From a phage: DNA of 64,000 bases. The DNA is taken from assembly GCA_011911785.1 (NCBI GenBank), contig GCA_011911785.1_4084.1; one strand, given 5' to 3'. Of the stretch, positions 2,048-16,925 are shown in pieces (positions within the stretch are counted from its first letter, which is position 1; every line of letters begins with the position of its first letter). A program made the position numbers and the translations under genes. The notes beneath the pieces were generated by a model. It did no database searches and was not told where the DNA came from. It worked only from the letters and a program-made list of their open reading frames with translations.

Positions 2048-2106
2048 TTGACAATAGATTATAGTACTGTATAATAGTTTACATCAAGGGGAGAATAGTT
2101 CTCCCC
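2048..2106 (+). promoter_or_regulatory. sigma70-like promoter (TTGACA-N16-TATAAT) plus 5'UTR stem-loop (PeSL-like)
   Basis: TTGACA 2048-2053, AGTACTG-TATAAT 2070-2075, hairpin GGGGAGAAtagTTCTCCCC 2088-2106. Confidence 0.65.
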
Positions 2107-2128
2107 ACTAACAGAGAGAGAAAACAAA

Positions 2129-2341
2129 ATGGCTAATATCCGGTCGAAATTGAAAAATGCAAAACAAGTTTTATTTTCAGACCATGAATACTTTAATAAA
2201 GATATTACAGGAGTTACAAGTATCAAGGAAGTAAAAGAAAAAACTGGCGTTTTGTGTGATGTGCGATTGGTTGGAACATTTGGGAATAACGTGCTATATC
2301 GATGCGGTGATTATAACTTTACATTAACCATTATCGATTAA
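2129..2341 (+). CDS. hypothetical protein (70 aa)
   Basis: ORF downstream of promoter cassette; RBS GAGAGAGA. Confidence 0.55.
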   Translation: MANIRSKLKNAKQVLFSDHEYFNKDITGVTSIKEVKEKTGVLCDVRLVGTFGNNVLYRCGDYNFTLTIID

Positions 2342-2360
2342 AAATATTATCACAGTACTA

Positions 2361-2389
2361 TTGACAAAGATTGATAGTACTGGCATAAT
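2361..2389 (+). promoter_or_regulatory. sigma70-like promoter (TTGACA-N17-CATAAT)
   Basis: TTGACA 2361-2366, AGTACTG, CATAAT 2384-2389. Confidence 0.5.
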
Positions 2390-2423
2390 AGATTTTATCA
2401 ACTACACTACTAAGGAATTAAAA

Positions 2424-2603
2424 ATGGCTATCATCGCAAAAACTGAAATCGTTGGTCTGGATTCTATCATCATGACGTTTGAAGATCAAAAAGGGATGTA
2501 TGTAGTTTCCTATGGTGATTATGTTCGGGAGTATGAAACGGTAGACGAAGCCTTTGAAAGTTACATTCGCCAGGTGAATAAAGCATACGACGACTACCGC
2601 TAA
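2424..2603 (+). CDS. hypothetical small protein (59 aa)
   Basis: track ORF 2361-2603 trimmed: its first ATG lies inside the promoter; RBS AAGGAA precedes ATG 2424. Confidence 0.5.
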   Translation: MAIIAKTEIVGLDSIIMTFEDQKGMYVVSYGDYVREYETVDEAFESYIRQVNKAYDDYR

Positions 2604-2630
2604 AATATATTACCAGTACTATTAAAGATA

Positions 2631-2658
2631 TTGACATAGTTTGATAGTACTGTATAAT
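2631..2658 (+). promoter_or_regulatory. sigma70-like promoter (TTGACA-N16-TATAAT)
   Basis: TTGACA 2631-2636, AGTACTG-TATAAT 2653-2658. Confidence 0.55.
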
Positions 2659-2702
2659 AAGTTTTATCAACAGTAGTTAACTTAACCTAAGAGAGAAAGA
2701 AA

Positions 2703-2846
2703 ATGATCGCACTGGATTCATTCATCGAAGCAGTACTGGCAAAAACTGGCGAAGATCTGACCGCAGAACAATACGCAATGATCGAACAATGCCAGCAAGA
2801 CGGTAAATCGGTGAAAGATACTGTTAAGATTATCCGCAAGATGTAA
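2703..2846 (+). CDS. hypothetical small protein (47 aa)
   Basis: RBS AGAGAGAAAG; below track cutoff; followed by intrinsic terminator. Confidence 0.45.
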   Translation: MIALDSFIEAVLAKTGEDLTAEQYAMIEQCQQDGKSVKDTVKIIRKM

Positions 2847-2852
2847 GATTAT

Positions 2853-2883
2853 AGCCCACTGGTTAACGCTGGTGGGCTTTTTA
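2853..2883 (+). terminator. rho-independent terminator
   Basis: stem AGCCCAC/GTGGGCT followed by TTTTT. Confidence 0.65.
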
Positions 2884-2967
2884 GTATATACCTATCCGAT
2901 AGTACTACAAAATAGATTAGCTCGTTAGAATGCGTTTGAGAGCGTTTAAATAAGTACTAAAAAGTAA

Positions 2968-2995
2968 TTGACAGTACTGAAAGATAGTATATAAT
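2968..2995 (+). promoter_or_regulatory. sigma70-like promoter (TTGACA-N16-TATAAT)
   Basis: TTGACA 2968-2973 then AGTACTG; TATAAT 2990-2995. Confidence 0.55.
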
Positions 2996-3024
2996 ATTTT
3001 ATATCTTAACTGAGGATAGAAATC

Positions 3025-3381
3025 ATGGGAATACAACACATCACGCGTACTACTGACAATGGTGAGATCACTGGTTATCAAGTACAGGGAAAAGCGTCAC
3101 AATTGCAGTACTGGTTTGAAAAACGTGGATTGATTGCACCGGATCTTGATTATGACCGTGTAGCGTTTATTGATTCTCTTTATGTTGATTCTGCTAGTCG
3201 GGGTAATGGTGAAGGCACGGAATTGATGAACGCCTTTATTGATGCCGCCGATGATTCAGATTGTATCATTTTAGAATGCGATACGGGAGAAGATAACGCC
3301 TTTAATCTTAAAGAATGGTACGAAGGTTTCGGATTCGAAGTACTGATCGATAGTGAATATCCTATCATGATTTTATCGTAG
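3025..3381 (+). CDS. putative GNAT-family N-acetyltransferase (118 aa)
   Basis: RBS GAGGA; segment VAFIDSLYVDSASRGNGEGTELM resembles GNAT motif A (R-G-x-G-x-G). Confidence 0.5.
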   Translation: MGIQHITRTTDNGEITGYQVQGKASQLQYWFEKRGLIAPDLDYDRVAFIDSLYVDSASRGNGEGTELMNAFIDAADDSDCIILECDTGEDNAFNLKEWYEGFGFEVLIDSEYPIMILS

Positions 3382-3394
3382 TACTAAAAAGTAA

Positions 3395-3451
3395 TTGACA
3401 GTACTGATAGATAGTGTATAATGTTTTACATGAAGGGGAAACATCTTCCCC
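3395..3451 (+). promoter_or_regulatory. sigma70-like promoter plus 5'UTR stem-loop (PeSL-like)
   Basis: TTGACA 3395-3400, TATAAT 3417-3422, hairpin GGGGAAacatcTTCCCC. Confidence 0.6.
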
Positions 3452-3463
3452 TACTAAGAGGAA

Positions 3464-3658
3464 ATGAAAATGGAAAACTTATCAAGTATTTTAGTACAAG
3501 ATGAATACGGCAATCCAGGAAGTGCTATCATTGTTCGGGGTAATAAGGCAACGTTTGTTATTGCTGGTGGACCTGTACAGCGTAGCATTAAAAACAATGC
3601 CGTTACTATTAATAATGTACGCTATCGCTTAGATAAAGAATTGATTCACAAACTGTAA
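3464..3658 (+). CDS. hypothetical protein (64 aa)
   Basis: RBS AAGAGGA upstream. Confidence 0.55.
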   Translation: MKMENLSSILVQDEYGNPGSAIIVRGNKATFVIAGGPVQRSIKNNAVTINNVRYRLDKELIHKL

Positions 3659-3685
3659 TATTAATTTAATAGAGGATAACAATAA

Positions 3686-4009
3686 ATGTACATTCATACT
3701 ACTATCACAAAGGAAGTCCGTTGCCAGTTCGAAAGTATTCCGGGCGTATGTTTCATCACTGGTACGTTTTCCCCTGGTGATCGTGATAATCCAGTACTGT
3801 TACAATTACGCCATCCATCATGGGATAAAGCATTTGATCTACCGTTGAATGAATTCGCAACTACTGCTGAAAAGTACATTAAAAATATTCGCGAGAATGA
3901 TCGACTATTCATTAATGCTTTTAGTGATTCCGCGTTAAGCGAGATCCACGGCGTATTGGTTGCAATCATGGAATCTATGCAGAAAACTAAATTCAAACAA
4001 GGTGAATAA
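3686..4009 (+). CDS. hypothetical protein (107 aa)
   Basis: RBS GAGGA upstream of ATG. Confidence 0.6.
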   Translation: MYIHTTITKEVRCQFESIPGVCFITGTFSPGDRDNPVLLQLRHPSWDKAFDLPLNEFATTAEKYIKNIRENDRLFINAFSDSALSEIHGVLVAIMESMQKTKFKQGE

Positions 4010-4015
4010 AAACTA

Positions 4016-4075
4016 TTGACAATGCAATCCAGTACTGTATAATAAGTTACATGAAGGGGAGAAATGATTCTCCCC
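4016..4075 (+). promoter_or_regulatory. sigma70-like promoter plus 5'UTR stem-loop (PeSL-like)
   Basis: TTGACA 4016-4021, AGTACTG-TATAAT 4038-4043, hairpin GGGGAGAAatgaTTCTCCCC 4056-4075. Confidence 0.65.
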
Positions 4076-4093
4076 AGTACTGAGGAAAGAAAA

Positions 4094-4306
4094 ATGCAAG
4101 GTCAACTAATCGTTCGTAAATGGTCTGATACTAACGAAAAACCGTGGGATGTACAATACATCGCCCCCAATGGTGAATCCAGATATCAACCAGGTGTAAC
4201 GCATAGTACTGAGCAATTCGCCGCCGCACACCGTGAACGCCTGTTACAATCCATGCAGCAAGGCTTCGGTGAAAAATTCATCCAAGATCATTGGCTGAAA
4301 GATTAA
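4094..4306 (+). CDS. hypothetical protein (70 aa)
   Basis: track ORF 4064-4306 trimmed: first ATG is inside the UTR hairpin; RBS GAGGAAAG precedes ATG 4094. Confidence 0.55.
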   Translation: MQGQLIVRKWSDTNEKPWDVQYIAPNGESRYQPGVTHSTEQFAAAHRERLLQSMQQGFGEKFIQDHWLKD

Positions 4307-4314
4307 AAAAGTAC

Positions 4315-4371
4315 TTGTGAAGTACTTAGAATCAAGTATAATGTTTTACATAGAGAGGGGAATAGTTCCCC
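4315..4371 (+). promoter_or_regulatory. sigma70-like promoter (TTGTGA-N16-TATAAT) plus 5'UTR stem-loop (PeSL-like)
   Basis: TATAAT 4337-4342, hairpin GGGGAAtagTTCCCC 4357-4371. Confidence 0.55.
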
Positions 4372-4393
4372 TCCTAACAAAAAGGAAAGTAAC

Positions 4394-4567
4394 ATGATCC
4401 AAGTAGAATTGACAGTACTGAAAGATCTGTTTTATCGGATGGGTACTACTGGCGAATATCCGAAAGGTGATACCGCAAAACTTTACGTATCGCTGGATGT
4501 ATGGCAACGCGAACAATTAGCAACGGCCTGGCGTAAAGGCAAAGCAGATCGCGAGGTGCAAGCATGA
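4394..4567 (+). CDS. hypothetical small protein (57 aa)
   Basis: RBS AAGGAAAG; below track cutoff. Confidence 0.45.
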   Translation: MIQVELTVLKDLFYRMGTTGEYPKGDTAKLYVSLDVWQREQLATAWRKGKADREVQA

Positions 4568-4713
4568 AAGAATACTTATTCGAAGTTACATTTTTGGGGC
4601 AAGGTATGCACCAACTAGTAAGATCCAGCGGTTATAGTCTTAACCAGGCATGGAATAACTTAAAGAAAATGTACCCTAACGCTATCACATATCGCAACCC
4701 AAAAGAAGTTTAA
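4564..4713 (+). CDS. hypothetical small protein (49 aa)
   Basis: ATGA stop/start overlap with previous ORF. Confidence 0.4.
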   Translation: MKEYLFEVTFLGQGMHQLVRSSGYSLNQAWNNLKKMYPNAITYRNPKEV

Positions 4714-4727
4714 AAATAATTGAAAAA

Positions 4728-4806
4728 GGGATTGACTCCGGTCAGTCCCTTTGCTATTATATACGCATAGAAACAAATCAGCCCACAGGGTGCATAAATG
4801 TATCTA
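4728..4806 (+). promoter_or_regulatory. repeat copy 2 of 4: terminator hairpin fused to promoter (TTGACT-N17-TATTAT) plus conserved leader
   Basis: hairpin GGGATTGAC-tccg-GTCAGTCCC then TTT; TATTAT 4755-4760. Confidence 0.65.
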
Positions 4807-4859
4807 TTATATGCTGGTGGACGTATTATCTAGTACTGAAAACTATTATAAAAAAGTAC

Positions 4860-4926
4860 TTGCATTGTACTTAGAATCAAGTATAATGTTTTACATCAGG
4901 ACGGGGAATGAAACAAGTAACCCCGT
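4860..4926 (+). promoter_or_regulatory. sigma70-like promoter (TTGCAT-N16-TATAAT) plus stem-loop
   Basis: TATAAT 4882-4887; hairpin ACGGGG...CCCCGT 4901-4926. Confidence 0.5.
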
Positions 4927-4975
4927 TAAGTAGTCCAGGAGTAAGACATAAGAAAACCTCCCCTGATAAAATAGT

Positions 4976-5003
4976 TTGACAATAGAAAGTAAACGAGTAT
5001 AAT
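4976..5003 (+). promoter_or_regulatory. sigma70-like promoter (TTGACA-N16-TATAAT)
   Basis: TTGACA 4976-4981, TATAAT 4998-5003. Confidence 0.55.
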
Positions 5004-5035
5004 ACTTACATCAACCACTGATAAGGAAACATAAA

Positions 5036-5311
5036 ATGCGGATTCTACTGACAGCTAACGAAATCGAACAAGTACTGACTACTAACCTGCAAGACTGGAA
5101 ACGTGAAGCAGATATCCAGGCGGTTCAATGGCTTAACGATAAGTTAACGCCGGATGACTTAAGCAAGATTGTAGATCCTCAATTCTATGAAGATATTCAC
5201 GACACCGCGTTAAGCGTCGAGGATGTACTTGATAAGCACTACATTGATATTGATTTGCAGGTTTACGGTCGTAAAAACTTTATCACTATTCACGACATTT
5301 ACAATAATTAA
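5036..5311 (+). CDS. hypothetical protein (91 aa)
   Basis: RBS AAGGAAA upstream of ATG. Confidence 0.6.
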   Translation: MRILLTANEIEQVLTTNLQDWKREADIQAVQWLNDKLTPDDLSKIVDPQFYEDIHDTALSVEDVLDKHYIDIDLQVYGRKNFITIHDIYNN

Positions 5312-5314
5312 GTA

Positions 5315-5375
5315 TTGACAAAGTATCTTAGTACTGTATAATAGTTTACATCAAGTGAGGGGAATGGTTCCCCTC
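5315..5375 (+). promoter_or_regulatory. sigma70-like promoter plus 5'UTR stem-loop (PeSL-like)
   Basis: TTGACA 5315-5320, TATAAT 5337-5342, hairpin GAGGGGAAtggTTCCCCTC; near-identical to cassette at 5585. Confidence 0.65.
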
Positions 5376-5398
5376 CTAACTAAAAGAGAGAAATAAAA

Positions 5399-5581
5399 AT
5401 GGCTAAGTGCACTATCTGTAAGAAAGAAATCGTATTAGTTCCAAGTGCCCGTGAACGTGCCGCTCGGTTCGGTGGCAAAGCGTCAGACTATACAAAAATG
5501 TTTACTACCCATGCAGATTGCCAGGTAGCAAAACGTTCACAAGAAAGCGTAGAATTAATGCGTAAACTTTCCAGAAAATAA
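5399..5581 (+). CDS. hypothetical protein (60 aa), possible Zn-ribbon (CxxC...HxxC)
   Basis: RBS AGAGAGA; CTICKK...HADC. Confidence 0.5.
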   Translation: MAKCTICKKEIVLVPSARERAARFGGKASDYTKMFTTHADCQVAKRSQESVELMRKLSRK

Positions 5582-5584
5582 GTA

Positions 5585-5646
5585 TTGACAAAGTATCTTA
5601 GTACTGTATAATAGTTTACATCGAGTGAGGGGAAACGGTTCCCCTC
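5585..5646 (+). promoter_or_regulatory. sigma70-like promoter plus 5'UTR stem-loop (PeSL-like)
   Basis: TTGACA 5585-5590, TATAAT 5607-5612, hairpin GAGGGGAAacggTTCCCCTC. Confidence 0.65.
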
Positions 5647-5669
5647 CTAACAAAGAGAGAGAAATAAAA

Positions 5670-5993
5670 ATGGCTATGATCCTCACCCAGAAAGTAGAAC
5701 TGAAAATTGTAACCTCCTTTGACATTAAAGTTAATCGGTGGACTGATTCACACGGCAATACTTACCACTCTTGCTACGTGTCTGCTTTGATTGGTGATCG
5801 CTGGGAGGATTTAGGACATGAAACCTTTACTTACGGTTACGGCACACAAGGCGAATACACAGGCTTGGAGATCATTAAAGAAACCGTTATAGGTTTCAAC
5901 CCGAAAGAAAAAGTTATTCATCAAATAGAAAAAGAGATCAACAAAGAAATAACAGTTCGATACTACGATGTAAAACGTAAGAAAGACATGTAA
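5670..5993 (+). CDS. hypothetical protein (107 aa)
   Basis: track ORF 5625-5993 trimmed to ATG after RBS GAGAGAGA; upstream part is promoter/hairpin. Confidence 0.55.
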   Translation: MAMILTQKVELKIVTSFDIKVNRWTDSHGNTYHSCYVSALIGDRWEDLGHETFTYGYGTQGEYTGLEIIKETVIGFNPKEKVIHQIEKEINKEITVRYYDVKRKKDM

Positions 5994-6015
5994 TAGAATC
6001 CATTTAAAGTACTAT

Positions 6016-6044
6016 TTGACATTGCCCAGATAGTACTTTATAAT
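6016..6044 (+). promoter_or_regulatory. sigma70-like promoter (TTGACA-N17-TATAAT)
   Basis: TTGACA 6016-6021, TATAAT 6039-6044. Confidence 0.5.
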
Positions 6045-6092
6045 AGACTCTAGCTTGTAGTACTAATTAACTTAACTAATAGGATGTATACC

Positions 6093-6488
6093 ATGATTAC
6101 TAAATTCTACGCTACCCGTGAAGCTGCCCGTATTGTTGCACGCGAGGAAGGAGCAGCATTTAAAGACATGGGCACGACCGCACCGAAAGGCCAACGCTGG
6201 GCCGTACAGTTCAAAGAAATCTCTGATATTGTGCATTCACCTGAGCCAGTACTAACAGCAGCAGAACTAAAACGAGCGGATATGCTGGCGGCAGTACTTA
6301 ACGCACAAGATGAGTTTATCGCTGGTTCTGATATCAAAGTACAGGTAAATGCTAATGCATGGACTCACGCGGATCACCTGGCTAACCTGAAGCGTCCAAG
6401 TGAACTGGTTCGCAACCAAAAAGAGATCCGTCATGATCGTAAGGGTAATCGTGTAACAGTATACAGTAAACGCCGCCAGGTTATCTAA
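6093..6488 (+). CDS. hypothetical protein (131 aa)
   Basis: RBS AGGA then ATG 6093 (track starts 6084); followed by terminator. Confidence 0.6.
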   Translation: MITKFYATREAARIVAREEGAAFKDMGTTAPKGQRWAVQFKEISDIVHSPEPVLTAAELKRADMLAAVLNAQDEFIAGSDIKVQVNANAWTHADHLANLKRPSELVRNQKEIRHDRKGNRVTVYSKRRQVI

Positions 6489-6510
6489 TAACTTGCAGTA
6501 CTAACAACAC

Positions 6511-6536
6511 GGCGGGATCAGTTCCCGCCTTTTTTA
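6511..6536 (+). terminator. rho-independent terminator
   Basis: stem GGCGGGA/TCCCGCC followed by TTTTTT. Confidence 0.7.
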
Positions 6537-6550
6537 TAGGATAAACTAAA

Positions 6551-6805
6551 ATGATTAAGGTTCAACTATCAAAAGATAATATCTTGCGGGTACACTATAA
6601 AGCACCACAGAGAATCATCACAAAGGCCGTACAGCTTGCTAATGAGTTTATTAATGGTAATCTATTGCCCAGGAAGTTAAGCAACGGCAAACTGCGTGTA
6701 ATCGATGTAGACACTAACAACAGAATAGTAATCGAGAATACAGGAAAGATAAACCTATATGAACACCAACAATATAATAAGAAAATAAAACTAATATCAC
6801 GTTGA
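6551..6805 (+). CDS. hypothetical protein (84 aa)
   Basis: RBS AGGA upstream of ATG. Confidence 0.5.
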   Translation: MIKVQLSKDNILRVHYKAPQRIITKAVQLANEFINGNLLPRKLSNGKLRVIDVDTNNRIVIENTGKINLYEHQQYNKKIKLISR

Positions 6806-6830
6806 CAGTACTCAATTGTTTTAGTACTAT
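6802..6830 (+). promoter_or_regulatory. sigma70-like promoter (TTGACA-N17-TACTAT)
   Basis: duplicated cassette, also at 7078. Confidence 0.45.
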
Positions 6831-6858
6831 GTATCTATACCAACACGGGAGAAACAAA

Positions 6859-7077
6859 ATGAAATTATCTAAAATCGAAAAGAAAACTATTGATGAAGCA
6901 GTTAAGCACGGTTATACCTTTCGTAATGATTCACATTTTACCAATTTTCAACAAGGGTATCGTACTATTAAAAAACTTATTGACAAAGGTTTATTAGTTG
7001 AAGTCAATAACGGTAACGGTATCGAGTATCAACCAACACAAGACGCATTATCTTTAAAGAAATATGCAATTATCTAA
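6859..7077 (+). CDS. hypothetical protein (72 aa)
   Basis: track ORF 6802 trimmed to ATG after RBS GGGAGAAA. Confidence 0.5.
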   Translation: MKLSKIEKKTIDEAVKHGYTFRNDSHFTNFQQGYRTIKKLIDKGLLVEVNNGNGIEYQPTQDALSLKKYAII

Positions 7078-7106
7078 TTGACAGTACTCAATTGTTTTAG
7101 TACTAT
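7078..7106 (+). promoter_or_regulatory. sigma70-like promoter (TTGACA-N17-TACTAT)
   Basis: near-identical copy of cassette at 6802. Confidence 0.45.
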
Positions 7107-7142
7107 ATGTACATACCAACACGGAATAACTGGAGAAACAAA

Positions 7143-7370
7143 ATGATTAATATCTTAGAACGCATCAAAGAAACTACTACGCTGGTGGATCTACTCAATG
7201 TACTGACTTTTAAAGTAACTCGGTTTAGTACTCCTGAATTTATCAACCTCATTGATAGTAAAGGTGAATACCGCATCACTATTGAAAATGGTCGTGCTAA
7301 TGTATTCAGTACTAAATCAGGTAAAACCGCAATTCATTCAGTAATTGCAAATAAAACTGTTGCAATCTAA
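7143..7370 (+). CDS. hypothetical protein (75 aa)
   Basis: track ORF 7107 trimmed to ATG after RBS GGAGAAA. Confidence 0.5.
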   Translation: MINILERIKETTTLVDLLNVLTFKVTRFSTPEFINLIDSKGEYRITIENGRANVFSTKSGKTAIHSVIANKTVAI

Positions 7371-7378
7371 TTAGTACT

Positions 7379-7438
7379 AACATATAATAGTCACATCAAG
7401 GCAGGGAATACCTCCCTGCTATCTTAAAGAGTAAATGC
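7379..7438 (+). promoter_or_regulatory. sigma70-like promoter (TTGCAA-N17-TATAAT) plus 5'UTR stem-loop
   Basis: TATAAT 7402-7407; hairpin GCAGGGA...TCCCTGC. Confidence 0.5.
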
Positions 7439-7439
7439 A

Positions 7440-8024
7440 ATGCGTAATTATACTAAATTCATCCGTACACTGGCAGAAATGGAAACTAATAAAGAGATCC
7501 TTACAGCTTGTCGGTTGGCTGGTCTGGAGATCATCGGGGCCGGATCATCCCGTATCGTATTCGCTTTAAATGATCGGTTAGTGATTAAGGTCGCTAATTG
7601 TGACGCTGGCGTAGAACAAAATGAAACAGAATGTAAGGTATGGAATTTTTTAGATTATGACCGCCCTCACCTTAAACAGTACTTTGCTAAGGTGCATATG
7701 CATTTAAGCGATCCTGATAATATGTTTATTGTTATGGATCGTTTGAGTACTGCAAGCAAAGGCAGTGTAAAGCACGTTAACGCTTGCAATGAATTAAAGT
7801 ACAATGTCAAACGTAACACTATTGAACGCCAACACCATTTCGCTGATGCACTACAACACGTTGATGATACCTTATCAACACTAACGATAAGAGATATCAG
7901 AAAGCAGAACATAGGCCAAGATCGCAATGGCCTGATTAAAGTACTTGATTACGGTTTAACCCGCAATATCTGGAATCAGTACTATAAACAACGCGACGTA
8001 AAAGCCGTAACTATAACACGATAA
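7440..8024 (+). CDS. putative protein kinase-like protein (194 aa)
   Basis: Gly-loop IGAGSSRIVF, VIKV lysine, catalytic-loop-like IRDIRKQNI (compare HRDLKPENI), DFG-like LDYG. Confidence 0.5.
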   Translation: MRNYTKFIRTLAEMETNKEILTACRLAGLEIIGAGSSRIVFALNDRLVIKVANCDAGVEQNETECKVWNFLDYDRPHLKQYFAKVHMHLSDPDNMFIVMDRLSTASKGSVKHVNACNELKYNVKRNTIERQHHFADALQHVDDTLSTLTIRDIRKQNIGQDRNGLIKVLDYGLTRNIWNQYYKQRDVKAVTITR

Positions 8025-8038
8025 AAAAGATTAAAAAA

Positions 8039-8120
8039 GGGATTGACTCCAGTCAGTCCCTTTGCTATTATATAGTCATTGAGAGATAACTCACTGACCC
8101 ATAGGGTGCATAAGTGTATC
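8039..8120 (+). promoter_or_regulatory. repeat copy 3 of 4: terminator hairpin fused to promoter plus conserved leader
   Basis: hairpin GGGATTGAC-tcca-GTCAGTCCC then TTT; TATTAT 8066-8071. Confidence 0.65.
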
Positions 8121-8166
8121 TATAATATAAGTATTGTCAGTACTGAAAACTATTTTTAAAAAGTAC

Positions 8167-8229
8167 TTGCATTGTACTTAGATTCAAGTATAATGTTTTA
8201 CATAGAGAGGGGGAAATAGTTCTCCCTCA
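8167..8229 (+). promoter_or_regulatory. sigma70-like promoter (TTGCAT-N16-TATAAT) plus 5'UTR stem-loop (PeSL-like)
   Basis: AAGTAC-TTGCATT-GTACTT; TATAAT 8189-8194; G-rich hairpin. Confidence 0.6.
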
Positions 8230-8248
8230 AAGAATAAGGAATAAAATC

Positions 8249-8470
8249 ATGACTACAATGACTTGCATTTACGCTTCCAATCTTCTGAATGATGCGGCCT
8301 TTAATGTTGATTCAGAATATCAATGTTATCGGGATGAAAATAAAAAAGTTTTTGTAGTTGATAATAATGGTTTCCATATTGAATTACAATCCGGCTTCAC
8401 TGGTGTTGATGGTAAATCAGTATGGGGCGTTCAGGATGATAAAGGCACATATCATTTTAAACGTAATTAA
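8249..8470 (+). CDS. hypothetical protein (73 aa)
   Basis: RBS AAGGAA upstream. Confidence 0.55.
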   Translation: MTTMTCIYASNLLNDAAFNVDSEYQCYRDENKKVFVVDNNGFHIELQSGFTGVDGKSVWGVQDDKGTYHFKRN

Positions 8471-8473
8471 GTA

Positions 8474-8532
8474 TTGACAAAGTATATCAGTACTGTATAA
8501 TAGTTTACATCAAGGGGAGAATAGTTCTCCCC
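8474..8532 (+). promoter_or_regulatory. sigma70-like promoter plus 5'UTR stem-loop (PeSL-like)
   Basis: TTGACA 8474-8479, AGTACTG-TATAAT 8496-8501, hairpin GGGGAGAAtagTTCTCCCC 8514-8532. Confidence 0.65.
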
Positions 8533-8553
8533 GATACTAAAAGGAATAAAATC

Positions 8554-8961
8554 ATGACTACTACTAATCAAGCTCGGTCCATCACCAACGATAAAAATCA
8601 TGCTGCAATGGTCGCTGGTTACATTGAAGCTATGCAATTCAGTACTGTACACAATGAGAACGGCGACTACCTGGAAGATTATGAATTATCAGAGCAAGCC
8701 CATCAAGCGGCAGTGATTGCATGTTCTCGTTTCCTTGAGAAGTTTAGTAATGAAATGGAAGCAGTACAAAAACACCATAATCCTGATTATACTTATAGTC
8801 ATGCAGGTCATGATCTCTTTCTTACCCGCGAAGGTCACGGTACTGGCTTTTGGGATCGTGATATCGGTCACTATGACGATGTATTCACTAAGTACTGCGA
8901 AGAAATCAACGTTTGCGATCCCTATGTAGGCGATGATAATCTAATCTATATGGGCGAATAA
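8554..8961 (+). CDS. hypothetical protein (135 aa)
   Basis: RBS AAGGAA; His/Gly-rich motif HAGHDLFLTREGHGTGFWD. Confidence 0.6.
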   Translation: MTTTNQARSITNDKNHAAMVAGYIEAMQFSTVHNENGDYLEDYELSEQAHQAAVIACSRFLEKFSNEMEAVQKHHNPDYTYSHAGHDLFLTREGHGTGFWDRDIGHYDDVFTKYCEEINVCDPYVGDDNLIYMGE

Positions 8962-8967
8962 AAGTAT

Positions 8968-9026
8968 TTGACAAAGCATATCAGTACTGTATAATAGTTT
9001 ACATCAAGGGGAGAATAGTTCTCCCC
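8968..9026 (+). promoter_or_regulatory. sigma70-like promoter plus 5'UTR stem-loop (PeSL-like)
   Basis: near-identical copy of cassette at 8474; TTGACA 8968-8973, TATAAT 8990-8995. Confidence 0.65.
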
Positions 9027-9048
9027 ACTACTAAAAGGAAACAAAATT

Positions 9049-9321
9049 ATGTCTAGCTACTCCGCTACTATGATCATCAAAGATATGAACGGTAATCCTA
9101 CTTCCGCTGGTGGATCATTTGGAAACATTAACTTAGATGGTCGGTTATCAATGGAATCAGCCATCAATGCAGCGAAAGAAGTTTTTAAGAATGAATGTAC
9201 TGTAAGCAAGCTGGATTATATGGGCTTCGCTATCGAGAAAACTAAACGTTTTGTGGACTACAAAAATCCACTGATGATTGATACTAACCTGAAAGCTAAC
9301 GAAGTGGAATACTTATTATGA
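9049..9321 (+). CDS. hypothetical protein (90 aa)
   Basis: RBS AAGGAAA upstream. Confidence 0.55.
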   Translation: MSSYSATMIIKDMNGNPTSAGGSFGNINLDGRLSMESAINAAKEVFKNECTVSKLDYMGFAIEKTKRFVDYKNPLMIDTNLKANEVEYLL

Positions 9322-9509
9322 CAGTTGATGAAGTTAAAAAAGTACTGGCAGTACTACGCTATCATAATCATTGTAAGGTTAAGAATGATCCTGATTATGT
9401 TGATTCATCCCTGGAGGAAGACACCTTAAACGCGATAAGCCATATGCAAACATTAGCAAAGCGTATGACCGAAAAGAATAGGCCGGACTATATCGGAAAT
9501 AAAATTTAA
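9318..9509 (+). CDS. hypothetical protein (63 aa)
   Basis: ATGA stop/start overlap with previous ORF. Confidence 0.5.
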   Translation: MTVDEVKKVLAVLRYHNHCKVKNDPDYVDSSLEEDTLNAISHMQTLAKRMTEKNRPDYIGNKI

Positions 9510-9516
9510 AAAGTAC

Positions 9517-9578
9517 TTGCATTGTAGTTAGATTAACGTATAATGTTTTATATCGAGAGGGGGAAATGGTTTCCCCTC
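9517..9578 (+). promoter_or_regulatory. sigma70-like promoter (TTGCAT-N16-TATAAT) plus 5'UTR stem-loop
   Basis: TATAAT 9539-9544; hairpin GAGGGGGAAAtggTTTCCCCTC. Confidence 0.6.
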
Positions 9579-9596
9579 AAGTCCAGGAGATACACC

Positions 9597-9863
9597 ATGA
9601 ACACTATCGAAATCACTATCAATGCTCACGTATACGACAACGTAGTACTGCAAACTACTATGACCGCTAACGATACCAGTACTTTGCGGAATACTGTTAT
9701 AAGTGCTGTATGTGCCGCTATCGGTGATGTATCCCTGGAAAACGCAGAACACATCAATAACGGTTTCACTATGTGCAAACGTGATAACGCAAAACATATC
9801 ATCGTAGAAGGTTACGGCGGTGTAGAATATAATCTTTATATGAAAAAAGTACTTGCATCGTAA
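9597..9863 (+). CDS. hypothetical protein (88 aa)
   Basis: track ORF 9543 trimmed to ATG after RBS AGGAGA. Confidence 0.55.
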   Translation: MNTIEITINAHVYDNVVLQTTMTANDTSTLRNTVISAVCAAIGDVSLENAEHINNGFTMCKRDNAKHIIVEGYGGVEYNLYMKKVLAS

Positions 9864-9909
9864 GTAAAACAAAGTATAATGTTTTGCATAGGGGGAGATA
9901 TCCTCCCCC
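9853..9909 (+). promoter_or_regulatory. sigma70-like promoter (TTGCAT-N16-TATAAT) plus 5'UTR stem-loop
   Basis: TATAAT 9875-9880; hairpin GGGGGAGatatCCTCCCCC. Confidence 0.6.
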
Positions 9910-9928
9910 ACTAATAAGGAGTACTACG

Positions 9929-10153
9929 ATGGCTAATCATGATGAACTGATTCGGGAAGTAGCTAACCTGGCGGCAGAAAAGAAATCATTTGATTCTATC
10001 TATAACACCGCTCACCGTGATTCAGTACTGGCATGTAATCAGGATCAAAAAGATGAACTGATCGCAACCTATCATGAAGCGTGGAAGTATTACCGTCAAT
10101 GGGAGAAAGAAGAAAAAGCATCAACCATAAGAGGATTAAATAATCTAGTATAA
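9929..10153 (+). CDS. hypothetical protein (74 aa)
   Basis: track ORF 9884 trimmed to ATG after RBS AAGGAG. Confidence 0.55.
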   Translation: MANHDELIREVANLAAEKKSFDSIYNTAHRDSVLACNQDQKDELIATYHEAWKYYRQWEKEEKASTIRGLNNLV

Positions 10154-10160
10154 CAATAAA

Positions 10161-10189
10161 AGGGGATGATAATATCCCCTTAATAATTT
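10161..10189 (+). terminator. putative intrinsic terminator
   Basis: stem AGGGGAT/ATCCCCT followed by an A/T-rich tract. Confidence 0.45.
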
Positions 10190-10205
10190 CTATAATAGGT
10201 TAACA

Positions 10206-10472
10206 ATGAAAAAGAAAACAACATATCGCTATAATAAAAATTATCAATCCGTTGTATTAGATCACTCTATGCTCCCGCTCGTTGTCCCTGCCGTTGGTGT
10301 AGTCTATCAATCCATATACTGGTCAAGGAAACAACAAAAGTACTTAAAAGGCCCAATAGCACGCTATGAGGGTAATGGTGTATGGTCCGATCCGTTACAT
10401 CCAATCACTACGCGTTATATTGAATATTTTCCTTATTGTGACTACATTGAAATACATCCTAAATTTAATTGA
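10206..10472 (+). CDS. hypothetical protein (88 aa), paralog of 10553-10810
   Basis: shared motif GNGxWxDPxxP...DYIE with the next ORF. Confidence 0.55.
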   Translation: MKKKTTYRYNKNYQSVVLDHSMLPLVVPAVGVVYQSIYWSRKQQKYLKGPIARYEGNGVWSDPLHPITTRYIEYFPYCDYIEIHPKFN

Positions 10473-10477
10473 TAGTA

Positions 10478-10531
10478 TTGACAGTACTAACTGATAGTGT
10501 ATAATGTTTTGCATAGGGGGAATACTCCCCC
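10478..10531 (+). promoter_or_regulatory. sigma70-like promoter plus 5'UTR stem-loop
   Basis: TTGACA 10478-10483, TATAAT 10500-10505, hairpin GGGGG-aatact-CCCCC. Confidence 0.6.
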
Positions 10532-10552
10532 AATATTAAAAGGGGAAACATC

Positions 10553-10810
10553 ATGGAACAATTCACACAATATCGGGTAAATCCTCAAGCTATGGCCTAC
10601 GTAGAAGACCATAAAACGTTACCAGTACTGCAACCAGTTAAAGGCCGTATCTATCGTGGCCTTGCATGGAATACGGCCCAGGATGGATATAAAACCGTTG
10701 CCGTGGGGATGTATTGCGGTAATGGTGAATGGTTTGATCCAAATAATCCGGTAGCTATTGACAGTACTGAAAAAATGAAATGGGCCGACTATATCGAGGA
10801 TATCTCATAA
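10553..10810 (+). CDS. hypothetical protein (85 aa), paralog of 10206-10472
   Basis: RBS AAGGGGAAA; shared motif CGNGEWFDPNNP. Confidence 0.55.
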   Translation: MEQFTQYRVNPQAMAYVEDHKTLPVLQPVKGRIYRGLAWNTAQDGYKTVAVGMYCGNGEWFDPNNPVAIDSTEKMKWADYIEDIS

Positions 10811-10816
10811 AACTAT

Positions 10817-10877
10817 TTGACAGTACTATCATATAGTGTATAATGTTTTACATAGAGCGGGGGAATAGTTCTCCCGC
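10817..10877 (+). promoter_or_regulatory. sigma70-like promoter plus 5'UTR stem-loop
   Basis: TTGACA 10817-10822, TATAAT 10839-10844, hairpin GCGGGGGAAtagTTCTCCCGC. Confidence 0.6.
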
Positions 10878-10899
10878 CAATAGTTTGGAGTAAAACATT

Positions 10900-11100
10900 A
10901 TGTCAATCGCTAACGAAATGATCGCAGTACTGAAAGAAGCTAAAGCCAACCTGATCGACGTAAAGATCCAGGAACTACAATCCGGCTTAATCGGCTGTAC
11001 TTGTACCGCTGGTGGGGCGACAGATTATCGTGAATTCGAATCACTCGAATCGATGGTTCGGTATCTTACAATGATCGTGGAAGATTGGAAGATCATCTAA
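10900..11100 (+). CDS. hypothetical protein (66 aa)
   Basis: RBS GGAG upstream. Confidence 0.55.
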   Translation: MSIANEMIAVLKEAKANLIDVKIQELQSGLIGCTCTAGGATDYREFESLESMVRYLTMIVEDWKII

Positions 11101-11118
11101 CAAAAAAGAATAAAAAAA

Positions 11119-11196
11119 GGGATTGACTCCGGTCAGTCCCTTTGCTATTATATACGCATAGACAAAAACTAGCCCACAGGGTGCATAAGTGTATCC
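11119..11196 (+). promoter_or_regulatory. repeat copy 4 of 4: terminator hairpin fused to promoter plus conserved leader
   Basis: hairpin GGGATTGAC-tccg-GTCAGTCCC then TTT; TATTAT 11146-11151. Confidence 0.65.
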
Positions 11197-11264
11197 AAAA
11201 TATATAGTTAATAACGGTGAGTAACTATCTGCTGGTGGAGTGAAAACTATTAATAAAAAAAGTA

Positions 11265-11293
11265 TTGACAAAGTATATCAGTACTGCAATAAT
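11265..11293 (+). promoter_or_regulatory. sigma70-like promoter (TTGACA-N17-AATAAT)
   Basis: TTGACA 11265-11270, AGTACTG, weaker -10. Confidence 0.45.
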
Positions 11294-11347
11294 GTATCTC
11301 GTAGGGCGGCAATGGTGCGACGGCCCACAAAGTTAGGAGATTCACAA

Positions 11348-11680
11348 ATGAGTACTTCAATCGCCATCGTTAATGCTTTCATCCGTACCAATGTTTCTTC
11401 TGTATTCATCGACGGACTGGATCGGGAAGTAGAATACTCAATCATTATCGCACAGACTGCAAACGGTGCTCGGTATATCCTCAATGATAGCGAAGCAAAT
11501 CACTACTACTACACTAAAGCTACTGGCTTTAAACGCATCGATGCGGACGTAGTATACGCTAAGATGAATAAGCTGGTAGACAAGATTAACGCTAAAGGTA
11601 CTATCGATTTACAGTACTGGACCGAAACCGATCCAGAATATGGATCTCACCGCTACCTGAATCCAGGTATTAAAATGTAA
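11348..11680 (+). CDS. hypothetical protein (110 aa)
   Basis: track ORF 11240 trimmed to ATG after RBS AGGAGA. Confidence 0.55.
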   Translation: MSTSIAIVNAFIRTNVSSVFIDGLDREVEYSIIIAQTANGARYILNDSEANHYYYTKATGFKRIDADVVYAKMNKLVDKINAKGTIDLQYWTETDPEYGSHRYLNPGIKM

Positions 11681-11687
11681 AAAGTAC

Positions 11688-11749
11688 TTGCATAGTACTT
11701 AGTAAAGTGTATAATGTTTTACATAGAGAGGGGGAAATGGTTCTCCCTC
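11688..11749 (+). promoter_or_regulatory. sigma70-like promoter (TTGCAT-N16-TATAAT) plus 5'UTR stem-loop
   Basis: TATAAT 11710-11715; G-rich hairpin 11728-11749. Confidence 0.6.
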
Positions 11750-11769
11750 CTAAATTAAGGAGTACTACC

Positions 11770-12171
11770 ATGACTTTCTCAATCACTTCCTACGCTGACG
11801 TTTTAGTACTGGCTCGGACTTTTGGTAAAGCTGGCATGGAGTATGCTGTAAACAATGGTCACATGCACCCTGAATATTGCCGCATCATTGGAAGCTGTAA
11901 ACGTTGGGCAACTAACAATACGATTGAACTGGAAAACTTCAATGATGGTAACAATGAATATACTGTTGATGCAGTATTTGAAGCCGTTGATCTCGGCGGT
12001 ATCTATAACACTAACCTGAATGATGTGCGTATCGTTCGCACGGGGTTCGGTGCTTATGATGTATCCATCCGTGAAGCTATGGACACGGGATACATTAGTA
12101 AGGACTTGCTCGCTTACATCATGCAGCAGACTAAGGAGCGTAACGAAGCACGCACTATCTTAGGACTGTAA
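11770..12171 (+). CDS. hypothetical protein (133 aa)
   Basis: track ORF 11707 trimmed to ATG after RBS AAGGAG. Confidence 0.6.
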   Translation: MTFSITSYADVLVLARTFGKAGMEYAVNNGHMHPEYCRIIGSCKRWATNNTIELENFNDGNNEYTVDAVFEAVDLGGIYNTNLNDVRIVRTGFGAYDVSIREAMDTGYISKDLLAYIMQQTKERNEARTILGL

Positions 12172-12195
12172 GCATTACACATCACCAAACATCAT

Positions 12196-12215
12196 AGGCC
12201 GCTCTCTAGCGGCCT
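12196..12215 (+). other. GC-rich hairpin (weak terminator candidate, no T-run)
   Basis: stem AGGCCGCT/AGCGGCCT. Confidence 0.3.
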
Positions 12216-12239
12216 TAACTATATCAGGAGTACACACAC

Positions 12240-12449
12240 ATGATCTATACAGTATACAGCGTTCTAGGTACTATTGCAGGCGTACATGATAACGTCGATG
12301 ATGCTATGCGTACAGTACTGCAACAGGTTCCACTAAAGCCTAAGACTATTAAGCAGATGACAGCACGACTAACCAGGGCAAAGGCTGGCGGTGAAGTCTG
12401 GCAGGACTACGCGGATACGCAGATTATCATTGCAGTAAGTAATGATTAA
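12240..12449 (+). CDS. hypothetical protein (69 aa)
   Basis: RBS AGGAG upstream. Confidence 0.55.
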   Translation: MIYTVYSVLGTIAGVHDNVDDAMRTVLQQVPLKPKTIKQMTARLTRAKAGGEVWQDYADTQIIIAVSND

Positions 12450-12492
12450 TGAATTAAATGATTCAGTACTAAAACTATTAGTCAGAAAATAA

Positions 12493-12527
12493 TCGGTGCA
12501 TTTTAAAAATGCATCGTTTTTTATTTT
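12493..12527 (+). terminator. rho-independent terminator
   Basis: palindrome TGCATTTT-A-AAAATGCA followed by TTTTTT. Confidence 0.6.
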
Positions 12528-16683: not shown

Positions 16684-16925
16684 AAATCCTTTCACCAAGT
16701 GAATACCACGAACTATTAAGTAGTTTAATTCCAAAGTTACATCGTAGCTGGTCAGCAGAATTATCACAGGATGAAAAAAATATTCTAATAAGTGAAATCT
16801 ATGTTCTAGCTACTATAGGAACTAACTATCAAGAACACATCATCGTGGATTATATTAATACACTTCAAAGGTCTATCCAATGCAAATGCGAATCATTACC
16901 GGAGAAGAATACCGAACAATCATAA
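16674..16925 (+). CDS. LGTNYQ-family small protein (83 aa), C-terminally extended
   Basis: motif TIGTNYQEHI; the usual KCK-stop junction has lost its stop, giving a 13-codon read-through tail. Confidence 0.55.
   Translation: MQMKILSPSEYHELLSSLIPKLHRSWSAELSQDEKNILISEIYVLATIGTNYQEHIIVDYINTLQRSIQCKCESLPEKNTEQS

Follow-up and report, generated by a model that had tools for sequence, protein, structure and literature searches.

A predicted minimal protein kinase of PHROG 4301 in the putative early region of a jumbo coliphage genome

The gp0.7 kinase of phage T7 (T7K; PHROG 2828) phosphorylates most of the host proteome and disarms several defence systems; its kinase domain is active, and indeed hyperactive, and its hyper-promiscuity has been ascribed to a DPV motif (PMC13645617). 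Bacterial pathogens also deploy small kinases against their hosts: OspG of Shigella and NleH1-2 of E. coli are active kinase domains of ~190–200 residues that lack subdomains VIII–XI (PMC12756638). Here we describe a 194-amino-acid (aa) open reading frame (ORF) in a 64,000-nucleotide stretch of phage DNA (GenBank assembly GCA_011911785.1, contig GCA_011911785.1_4084.1), referred to below as the window. Its product matches phrog_4301 with an E-value of 2e-41, and the gene very probably encodes a real, conserved, minimal kinase that is predicted, from its sequence and modelled structure, to be active. An earlier reading of the window made from its letters alone (the sequence-only reading) had singled out this ORF as a kinase-like protein expressed from an early promoter and had compared it with the T7 early kinase.

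The kinase-like nature of the gene is not new, as it is already stated in a number of GenBank records and in one paper. The labels "protein kinase" or "putative protein kinase" are attached to it in the deposited records of K64-1, Munch, Muenster, SE_PL, ph0011, Turkey3 and fEgEco12, with the Muenster record citing an HHpred match (99.9%) to the kinase 6J5T_M, and the Sharanji orthologue (WNN14351.1) has been given as "another protein kinase" with its function labelled unknown (PMC11895373). Protein kinases made early by phages are, as a kind, already known. We found nothing on the PHROG 4301 family in the literature on phage minimal kinases, and three aspects appear to be undescribed in the literature searched: PHROG 4301 as a distinct and widespread minimal-kinase family with an invariant arginine in the Gly-rich loop (G-loop) and a Gln-Asn pair in helix αC, the occurrence of its domain in tandem copies and tape-measure fusions, and its co-residence with a T7K-type kinase.

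The window belongs to the 121Q/PBECO4-type (Asteriusvirus, Rak2-like) lineage of jumbo coliphages, and by megablast the region is 88–93% identical in the 121Q/PBECO4/phAPEC6/Sharanji-type jumbo coliphages, whose genomes span 348–386 kb. Orthologues with 91–96% identity are carried by 35 phages of the 121Q/PBECO4 type, and homologues with 35–39% identity are present in Klebsiella phages RaK2, K64-1 and Muenster, Salmonella phages Munch and SE_PL, E. coli phage EJP2, Xanthomonas phage XbC2 and Erwinia phage Kaldavass (both by tblastn). Comparison with three close orthologues gives a ratio of non-synonymous to synonymous substitution rates (dN/dS) of 0.05–0.08, with ~40 synonymous and 9–17 non-synonymous differences, which marks the ORF as a genuine coding gene subject to strong purifying selection. 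The ORF list agrees with the sequence-only reading on its position and length. A second PHROG 4301 copy was sought in the 64-kb window and none was found.

As a single sequence, the protein matches the Pfam Pkinase profile (PF00069) with an E-value of 0.001 and 18.9 bits, spanning profile positions 25–152 of 263, and PKC-theta with an E-value of 0.012. These alignments are in register, pairing VIKV with VAIK, RD..N with RDLKxxN, and DYG with DFG. Relatives were gathered by running phmmer exhaustively over 1.84 billion cluster representatives (E ≤ 1e-3), and a family profile was built on an alignment of 56 sequences, only six of which match Pkinase at E ≤ 0.01. Compared with the PDB, this profile recovers MKK4 (1.1e-5) and PKC-beta (9e-5), and then AKT and BTK, with the G-loop through to the DFG motif in register. 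By sequence similarity, a protein kinase is a better fit than a small-molecule kinase. NCBIfam has no family for the query. A link to Kinase-PolyVal (PF18762) was rejected, as the query has no match to it and just one of the 56 members does (E = 0.0069); membership in a defence system was likewise rejected, the PADLOC matches to the PD-T4-6 kinase being weak and generic (E ~4e-4).

The AlphaFold2 model, built with the 56-sequence alignment, has a mean predicted local distance difference test score (pLDDT) of 95.3 and a predicted template modelling score (pTM) of 0.90. It predicts a bilobal kinase-like fold with an N-lobe, αC, hinge, αD/αE, catalytic loop and DFG equivalent; fold prediction was a check proposed in the sequence-only reading, and the kinase-like bilobal core that it returned leaves the idea standing. 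In the model, two N-terminal helices (aa 4–26) are followed by β1–β3 (aa 30–52), a long αC (aa 55–73), β5 and the hinge (aa 96–100), αD (aa 109–120) and αE (aa 129–145), and then by the catalytic loop, β7, β8, the D-Y-G motif and one short helix (aa 175–182), with the chain stopping 22 residues past D-Y-G. The short C-lobe is family-wide and not a local truncation, as the domain ends 0–30 aa from the C-terminus in nearly all relatives. A Foldseek search of the PDB with the model finds MEK1, OSR1, Lpg2603, PRPK and p38, at probabilities of 0.94–1.0 (mostly 1.0) and E-values of 1e-4 to 1e-3. Against BFVD it finds the RaK2 homologue (TM 0.85) and many small uncharacterised phage proteins; of the viral entries that bear an annotation, T7-like ones labelled "protein kinase" match best in structure (Pantoea SK1, RSB1, Cota and fPS-53; E ~3e-6 to 4e-5, TMq ~0.55).

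Conservation of the kinase motifs was scored in a census of 227 domain units from 210 proteins, and the positions of the motifs are given in Table 1. The β3 lysine, K50, is present in all 227 units (100%) and aligns with the kinase β3 Lys in the PKC, MKK4 and T7K alignments. The αC glutamate, E64, is present in 226 (99.6%), and the DFG-equivalent residues D170 and G172 are kept in 225 (99%) and 223 (98%), respectively. At the catalytic position, 217 units (96%) have D152 and 5 more have Glu. The G-loop, which aligns with the kinase G-loop in both PKC-beta and T7K, retains G35 in 220 units and G33 in 197, and R38, standing at the position of the third glycine, is present in 227 of 227. Q60 and N61, one turn ahead of the αC Glu, are each found in 222 units (98%). 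R38, Q60 and N61 are thus family-specific invariants at the sequence level. When 15 phage homologues are aligned, K50, E64, D152 and D170 are invariant.

The catalytic loop is less uniform. Positions 150, 151, 154 and 155 vary among homologues, so that within IRDIRKQN only D152 is kept, together with N157 in the jumbo-phage subgroup (at least 90% conserved among jumbo-phage homologues). The lysine of HRDxK aligns with R154 rather than with K155, and R154 varies too. There is no conserved Arg before the catalytic Asp, and the protein is therefore a non-RD kinase. The sequence-only reading had described a Gly-rich loop, VIKV and LDYG, all of which are present as described; it had also matched the loop to HRDxKxxN in full, and here the agreement is partial, as D152 and, in jumbo phages, N157 are conserved and R151 and K155 are variable. 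It had further named loss of the catalytic Lys and Asp equivalents among homologues as an outcome that would tell against a kinase, and these residues are positionally conserved.

Table 1. Positions of the kinase-like gene, its motifs and its flanking elements. Coordinates are those of the window unless another record is named.
Feature	Coordinates	Strand	Remarks
Coding sequence, 194-aa minimal protein-kinase-like enzyme (PHROG 4301)	7440-8024	+	ORF list, dN/dS, PHROG match, predicted fold
Gly-rich ATP-binding loop G33-A-G35-S-S-R38-I-V40 (GAGSSRIV)	7536-7559 (aa 33-40)	+	
VIKV	7581-7592 (aa 48-51)	+	Contains K50 (7587-7589), the β3 VAIK-type lysine
αC motif Q60-N61-x-x-E64	7617-7631	+	E64 is the αC glutamate; Q and N are family-specific
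Catalytic loop I150-R-D152-I-R-K-Q-N157 (IRDIRKQN)	7887-7910 (aa 150-157)	+	D152, catalytic Asp; N157, D+5 Asn
L169-D170-Y-G172	7944-7955 (aa 169-172)	+	DFG-equivalent metal-binding motif
Sigma-70-type promoter TTGCAA-17-TATAAT	7360-7388	+	Consensus scan; putative promoter function
5' leader stem-loop, stem GCAGGGA/TCCCTGC, loop ATACC	7399-7421	+	Between promoter and ribosome-binding site
Shine-Dalgarno-like AAGAG	7427-7431	+	8 nt ahead of ATG; read from sequence
Terminator-like 12-bp stem-loop	8036-8063	+	Directly past the kinase stop codon; consensus scan
Sharanji gp144	OR545507.1 66182-66856 (L021:22183-22857)	-	Outside window

The wider family comprises 280 relatives (clusters at 50% identity), mostly from large phages. 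PHROG 4301 carries the label "unknown function", and the relatives are unannotated and lack a curated model. Where their context is visible they are phage-borne, several lying on contigs of 320–350 kb, and one adjoins 5'-3' exonuclease, dUTPase and RecA-like genes. Many relatives hold two to four tandem copies of the domain (for example P0021, P0033, P0037 and P0112), with the catalytic set intact in each copy. Two catalytically intact copies are also found at aa ~650–1070 of a 3,248-aa metagenomic protein (P0127; L023:2318-12064), identified as a tape-measure protein by multiple tape-measure PHROGs and Pfam PhageMin_Tail. These embedded copies are a hint of physical delivery of the domain by some phages at the time of infection. 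The window's own lineage is different in this respect: the virion proteome of phAPEC6 numbers 62 proteins and does not include the orthologue, gp500c, so that here the protein would be made after infection rather than injected, and virion packaging in this lineage was rejected on the same evidence.

The lineage also contains a separate T7K homologue. Sharanji gp144 (WNN14432.1) is a 224-aa protein with the motif "ITDP" and no shut-off domain, and in hhalign comparisons it scores 99% against the T7K profile and 12.7% against the PHROG 4301 family. T7K homologues of the gp144 type are conserved in ~25 related phages, and in Sharanji the gene lies ~46 kb from the PHROG 4301 gene. This is presumably the "jumbophage" branch noted previously (PMC13645617). 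No T7K-type paralogue was found in the 64-kb window with phmmer and the T7K profile.

The predicted early expression of the kinase gene is well supported by its context. The position of the sigma-70-type promoter is kept upstream of the orthologues, with TTGCCA-17-TAAGAT/TAATAT in Sharanji and vB_Ec-M-J and a perfect TTGACA-17-TATAAT in EJP2, and the aligned orthologues have equivalents of the A-G-rich ribosome-binding site (RBS). The gene lies within a dense array of 13 perfect (12/12) TTGACA-16/17-TATAAT promoters at positions 2048–10844, all on the + strand, while the rest of the window (53 kb) has only three more. The annotated direct terminal repeat of vB_Ec-M-J and Muenster, ~20 kb in length, contains the gene, and terminal repeats of ~21 kb have been reported for fEgEco12 and others (PMC13070987). 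By homology with vB_Ec-M-J, in which the direct terminal repeat runs from 1 to 21,525 and the kinase is at 16,690, the boundary of the terminal repeat would be expected at around position 12,300 of the window. In the related phage CBB, blocks of short ORFs that are rich in RpoD promoters and reach into the terminal repeat were interpreted by the authors as genes for early takeover of the host (PMC5259590). The early promoter claimed in the sequence-only reading is thus supported by a conserved sigma-70-type sequence directly upstream, an early-type promoter array and the terminal repeat of relatives.

Each of the perfect-consensus promoters is part of a cassette that precedes a small ORF. In the cassette, an A-rich upstream element precedes the -35 hexamer, which is followed by agtactgTATAAT and agtttacatcaa; a GC-rich leader hairpin (e.g. 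GGGGAGAATAGTTCTCCCC) then leads to the RBS. The promoter and hairpin of the kinase gene are a degenerate copy of this cassette, the architecture "agtact..TATAATagt.acatcaag + hairpin" being common to the 13 perfect-consensus neighbours. The exact sequence of the kinase leader hairpin occurs once in the window and is absent from the orthologous leaders of Sharanji and vB_Ec-M-J; the hairpin, taken as positions 7401–7419, was rejected as a unique insertion, since equivalent GC-rich hairpins trail the -10 hexamer in most cassette copies of the window and it is the usual stem-loop of the cassette. The kinase hairpin possibly stabilises the transcript, and the conserved hairpins of the cassettes in general may serve as stabilisers of early transcripts or as regulatory targets. 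The stem-loop that follows the gene has no clean T-tract and shares positions with a promoter-like TTGACT-17-TATTAT (8043–8071) that carries a TG extension, and the element at 8036–8071 could be a combined terminator/promoter or a leader structure.

We consider it probable, if well short of assured, that the product is a constitutively active minimal kinase, made early from promoters of the host RNA polymerase, which phosphorylates host and/or phage proteins in the service of takeover or counter-defence. The protein would keep the catalytic apparatus, with the G-loop, Lys50, Glu64, the hinge, αD/αE, Asp152, Asn157 and the Mg-binding Asp170-Tyr-Gly, and Arg38 and Gln60/Asn61 may take on the phosphate contacts and the positioning of αC. 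Given the lack of an activation loop and of a conserved Arg before the catalytic Asp, constitutive activity of the enzyme from its synthesis onwards is most likely. The host RNA polymerase would transcribe the gene from one of the many sigma-70 cassettes of the terminal-repeat early region, and host (perhaps also phage) proteins would be phosphorylated early in infection, takeover or counter-defence being the most likely role. Such an enzyme would be functionally analogous to T7 gp0.7, yet of a separate family. That the enzyme is catalytically active, and constitutively so, that it is made early, that its substrates are proteins and what it does in infection are all things that we infer.

Several observations weigh against this interpretation. 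The canonical peptide-binding elements are all missing, there being no activation segment, P+1 loop, APE motif or αF–αI (Hanks subdomains VIII–XI). Ser/Thr kinases have a D+2 Lys that this family does not conserve, and outside the jumbo-phage subgroup the D+5 position (N157) is occupied by H, N, S or Q. The single-sequence score of 18.9 bits is under the PF00069 gathering cut-off of 31.7, and TM-scores to solved kinases are 0.4–0.47, with ~120–130 of the 194 residues superposed. The gene's own promoter is a weaker match to the consensus (10/12). Moreover, a T7K-type kinase is already present in these phages, and a second promiscuous kinase might therefore be redundant.

Among other explanations, the enzyme could be an active phosphotransferase of the kinase fold that acts on a non-protein target, such as a nucleotide or defence second messenger, an envelope sugar or lipid, or an antibiotic-like compound, in the manner of aminoglycoside, choline or Kdo kinases. 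We regard this as unlikely: the top 60 PDB matches of the family profile are protein kinases only, the Pfam matches are mainly to Pkinase, and the closest annotated viral structural matches are the T7-like protein kinases. The His of the Brenner motif (HxDxxxxN) that marks the APH/ChoK enzymes is not conserved here and their C-terminal helical substrate subdomain is absent, and the similarly truncated T7K, OspG and NleH are proven protein kinases. The drastic reduction of the C-lobe, together with the non-canonical nature of the invariant G-loop Arg and the αC Gln-Asn pair, could also be taken to indicate a pseudokinase, which would serve as an ATP- or host-protein-binding scaffold or inhibitor, or an enzyme with another chemistry, such as an AMPylation-like reaction, in place of phosphotransfer. 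Kinase folds that AMPylate or glutamylate do exist, in SelO and SidJ, and the Foldseek matches include Lpg2603, an atypical kinase of Legionella. Typical pseudokinases, however, are missing one or more of the Lys, the catalytic Asp and the DFG Asp, and in this family all three, together with the αC Glu, are 96–100% conserved in 227 divergent copies with a canonical motif register. This is the pattern expected of active phosphotransfer, and we judge a pseudokinase or a different chemistry to be distinctly improbable.

That this small phage protein has an unrelated fold and resembles kinases by chance might be suspected from the marginal single-sequence scores (18.9 bits against 31.7; E = 0.012 in the PDB) and from the brevity of VIKV and DYG, motifs that are individually common. 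Profile searches, profile-profile comparison, a confident structure prediction, two independent fold-search methods and the invariant catalytic positions nevertheless concur, and on this sequence and model evidence we give chance next to no weight and consider it effectively refuted.

If the product is a constitutively active protein kinase, as we favour, a broader proposal can be put forward tentatively, and as a conjecture that may well be wrong. PHROG 4301 might be a second, independently evolved lineage of 'loose-cannon' constitutive phage kinases, in which the G-loop Arg and the αC Gln-Asn pair replace the activation segment, and which is deployed at the start of infection, through early promoters, tandem proteins or ejected tape-measure fusions, disarming defences or taking over the host alongside the T7K-type kinase. 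Phage protein kinases have recently become prominent, and PHROG 4301 would add a separate, widely distributed family of still smaller ones. With its catalytic core complete in ~165 residues, the protein would be an attractive minimal model for a kinase that dispenses with the activation segment and the αF scaffold. The presence of a PHROG 4301 kinase and a T7K-type kinase in the same phages also raises the question of whether the two divide their labour, by timing, substrates or defence systems, or whether one of them has non-protein targets. Were the PHROG 4301 protein inactive or redundant, it would merely be another annotated hypothetical early gene.

The genes around the kinase were compared across seven loci. 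No consistently adjacent partner or substrate gene was found among them, and synteny is conserved but shuffled. Around the kinase (window positions 3000–12500) are ~15 small ORFs with 25–85% identity to counterparts in K64-1, Munch, EJP2, XbC2, Muenster and the metagenomic jumbo-phage contig L008, in shuffled order; examples are those at 4394–4564, 5036–5308, 6084–6485, 11240–11677, 11707–12168 and 12240–12446. Together these ORFs look like a conserved early-gene module. An 84-aa ORF at 6551–6805 (+) has 46–79% identity to a 'YafQ-like ribonuclease toxin' of K64-1 and to a ParE_like (Pfam) protein of contig L008, and is also present in Munch; its product is a putative toxin-fold protein of the early region. 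The G+C content is ~37% over the first 16 kb (1–16 kb) of the window and ~33% beyond, and strong + strand promoters become sparser after ~12 kb.

With canonical Ser/Thr/Tyr kinases (PF00069/PF07714) the 194-aa protein shares all five core catalytic residues, alike in order and spacing, but the C-terminal ~110 residues of the domain are missing, and the His and Arg of HRD and the D+2 Lys are not conserved. The atypical minimal kinases Bud32/PRPK and RIO differ in that they keep helices after the DFG equivalent and act in KEOPS or pre-ribosome complexes as universal cellular proteins, and neither has a sequence-level match to the protein. OspG and NleH have the same architecture, an N-lobe and a truncated C-lobe from which subdomains VIII–XI are missing.

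Like T7K, the 194-aa protein is the product of an early-region phage gene that host RNA polymerase transcribes, in its case by prediction. In both, the kinase domain is minimal and ends ~25 residues past the metal-binding Asp, without a canonical activation segment or αF–αI, and the N-lobe signature "AG(L/F)xxLGxG...VIKV" and a D-x4-N catalytic loop are common to the two. Aligned family to family with hhalign, they match in register over 148 columns (probability 86.8%, E 4e-6), and the PHROG 4301 profile against a single T7K sequence gives a probability of 3%. The T7K hidden Markov model (HMM) does not detect the 194-aa ORF (E ~1), and HMM searches give no significant cross-detection between the families. 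The homologues of T7K have an invariant T-D-P where PHROG 4301 has D170-Y-G172; the αC "QNxxE" and G-loop Arg of PHROG 4301 contrast with "KKEDSGAAY" and "GHFSAA" in T7K; and the 194-aa protein has neither the C-terminal shut-off/DNA-binding domain nor the DPV motif credited for the hyper-promiscuity of T7K. Membership of the protein in the T7K family was accordingly rejected, all 56 members tested being PHROG 4301, with D-Y-G and not D-P-V. The analogy with T7 drawn in the sequence-only reading seems reasonable as a functional likeness, with the family distinct, and from these sequence comparisons we read PHROG 4301 and T7K as two related but separate families of phage minimal kinases.

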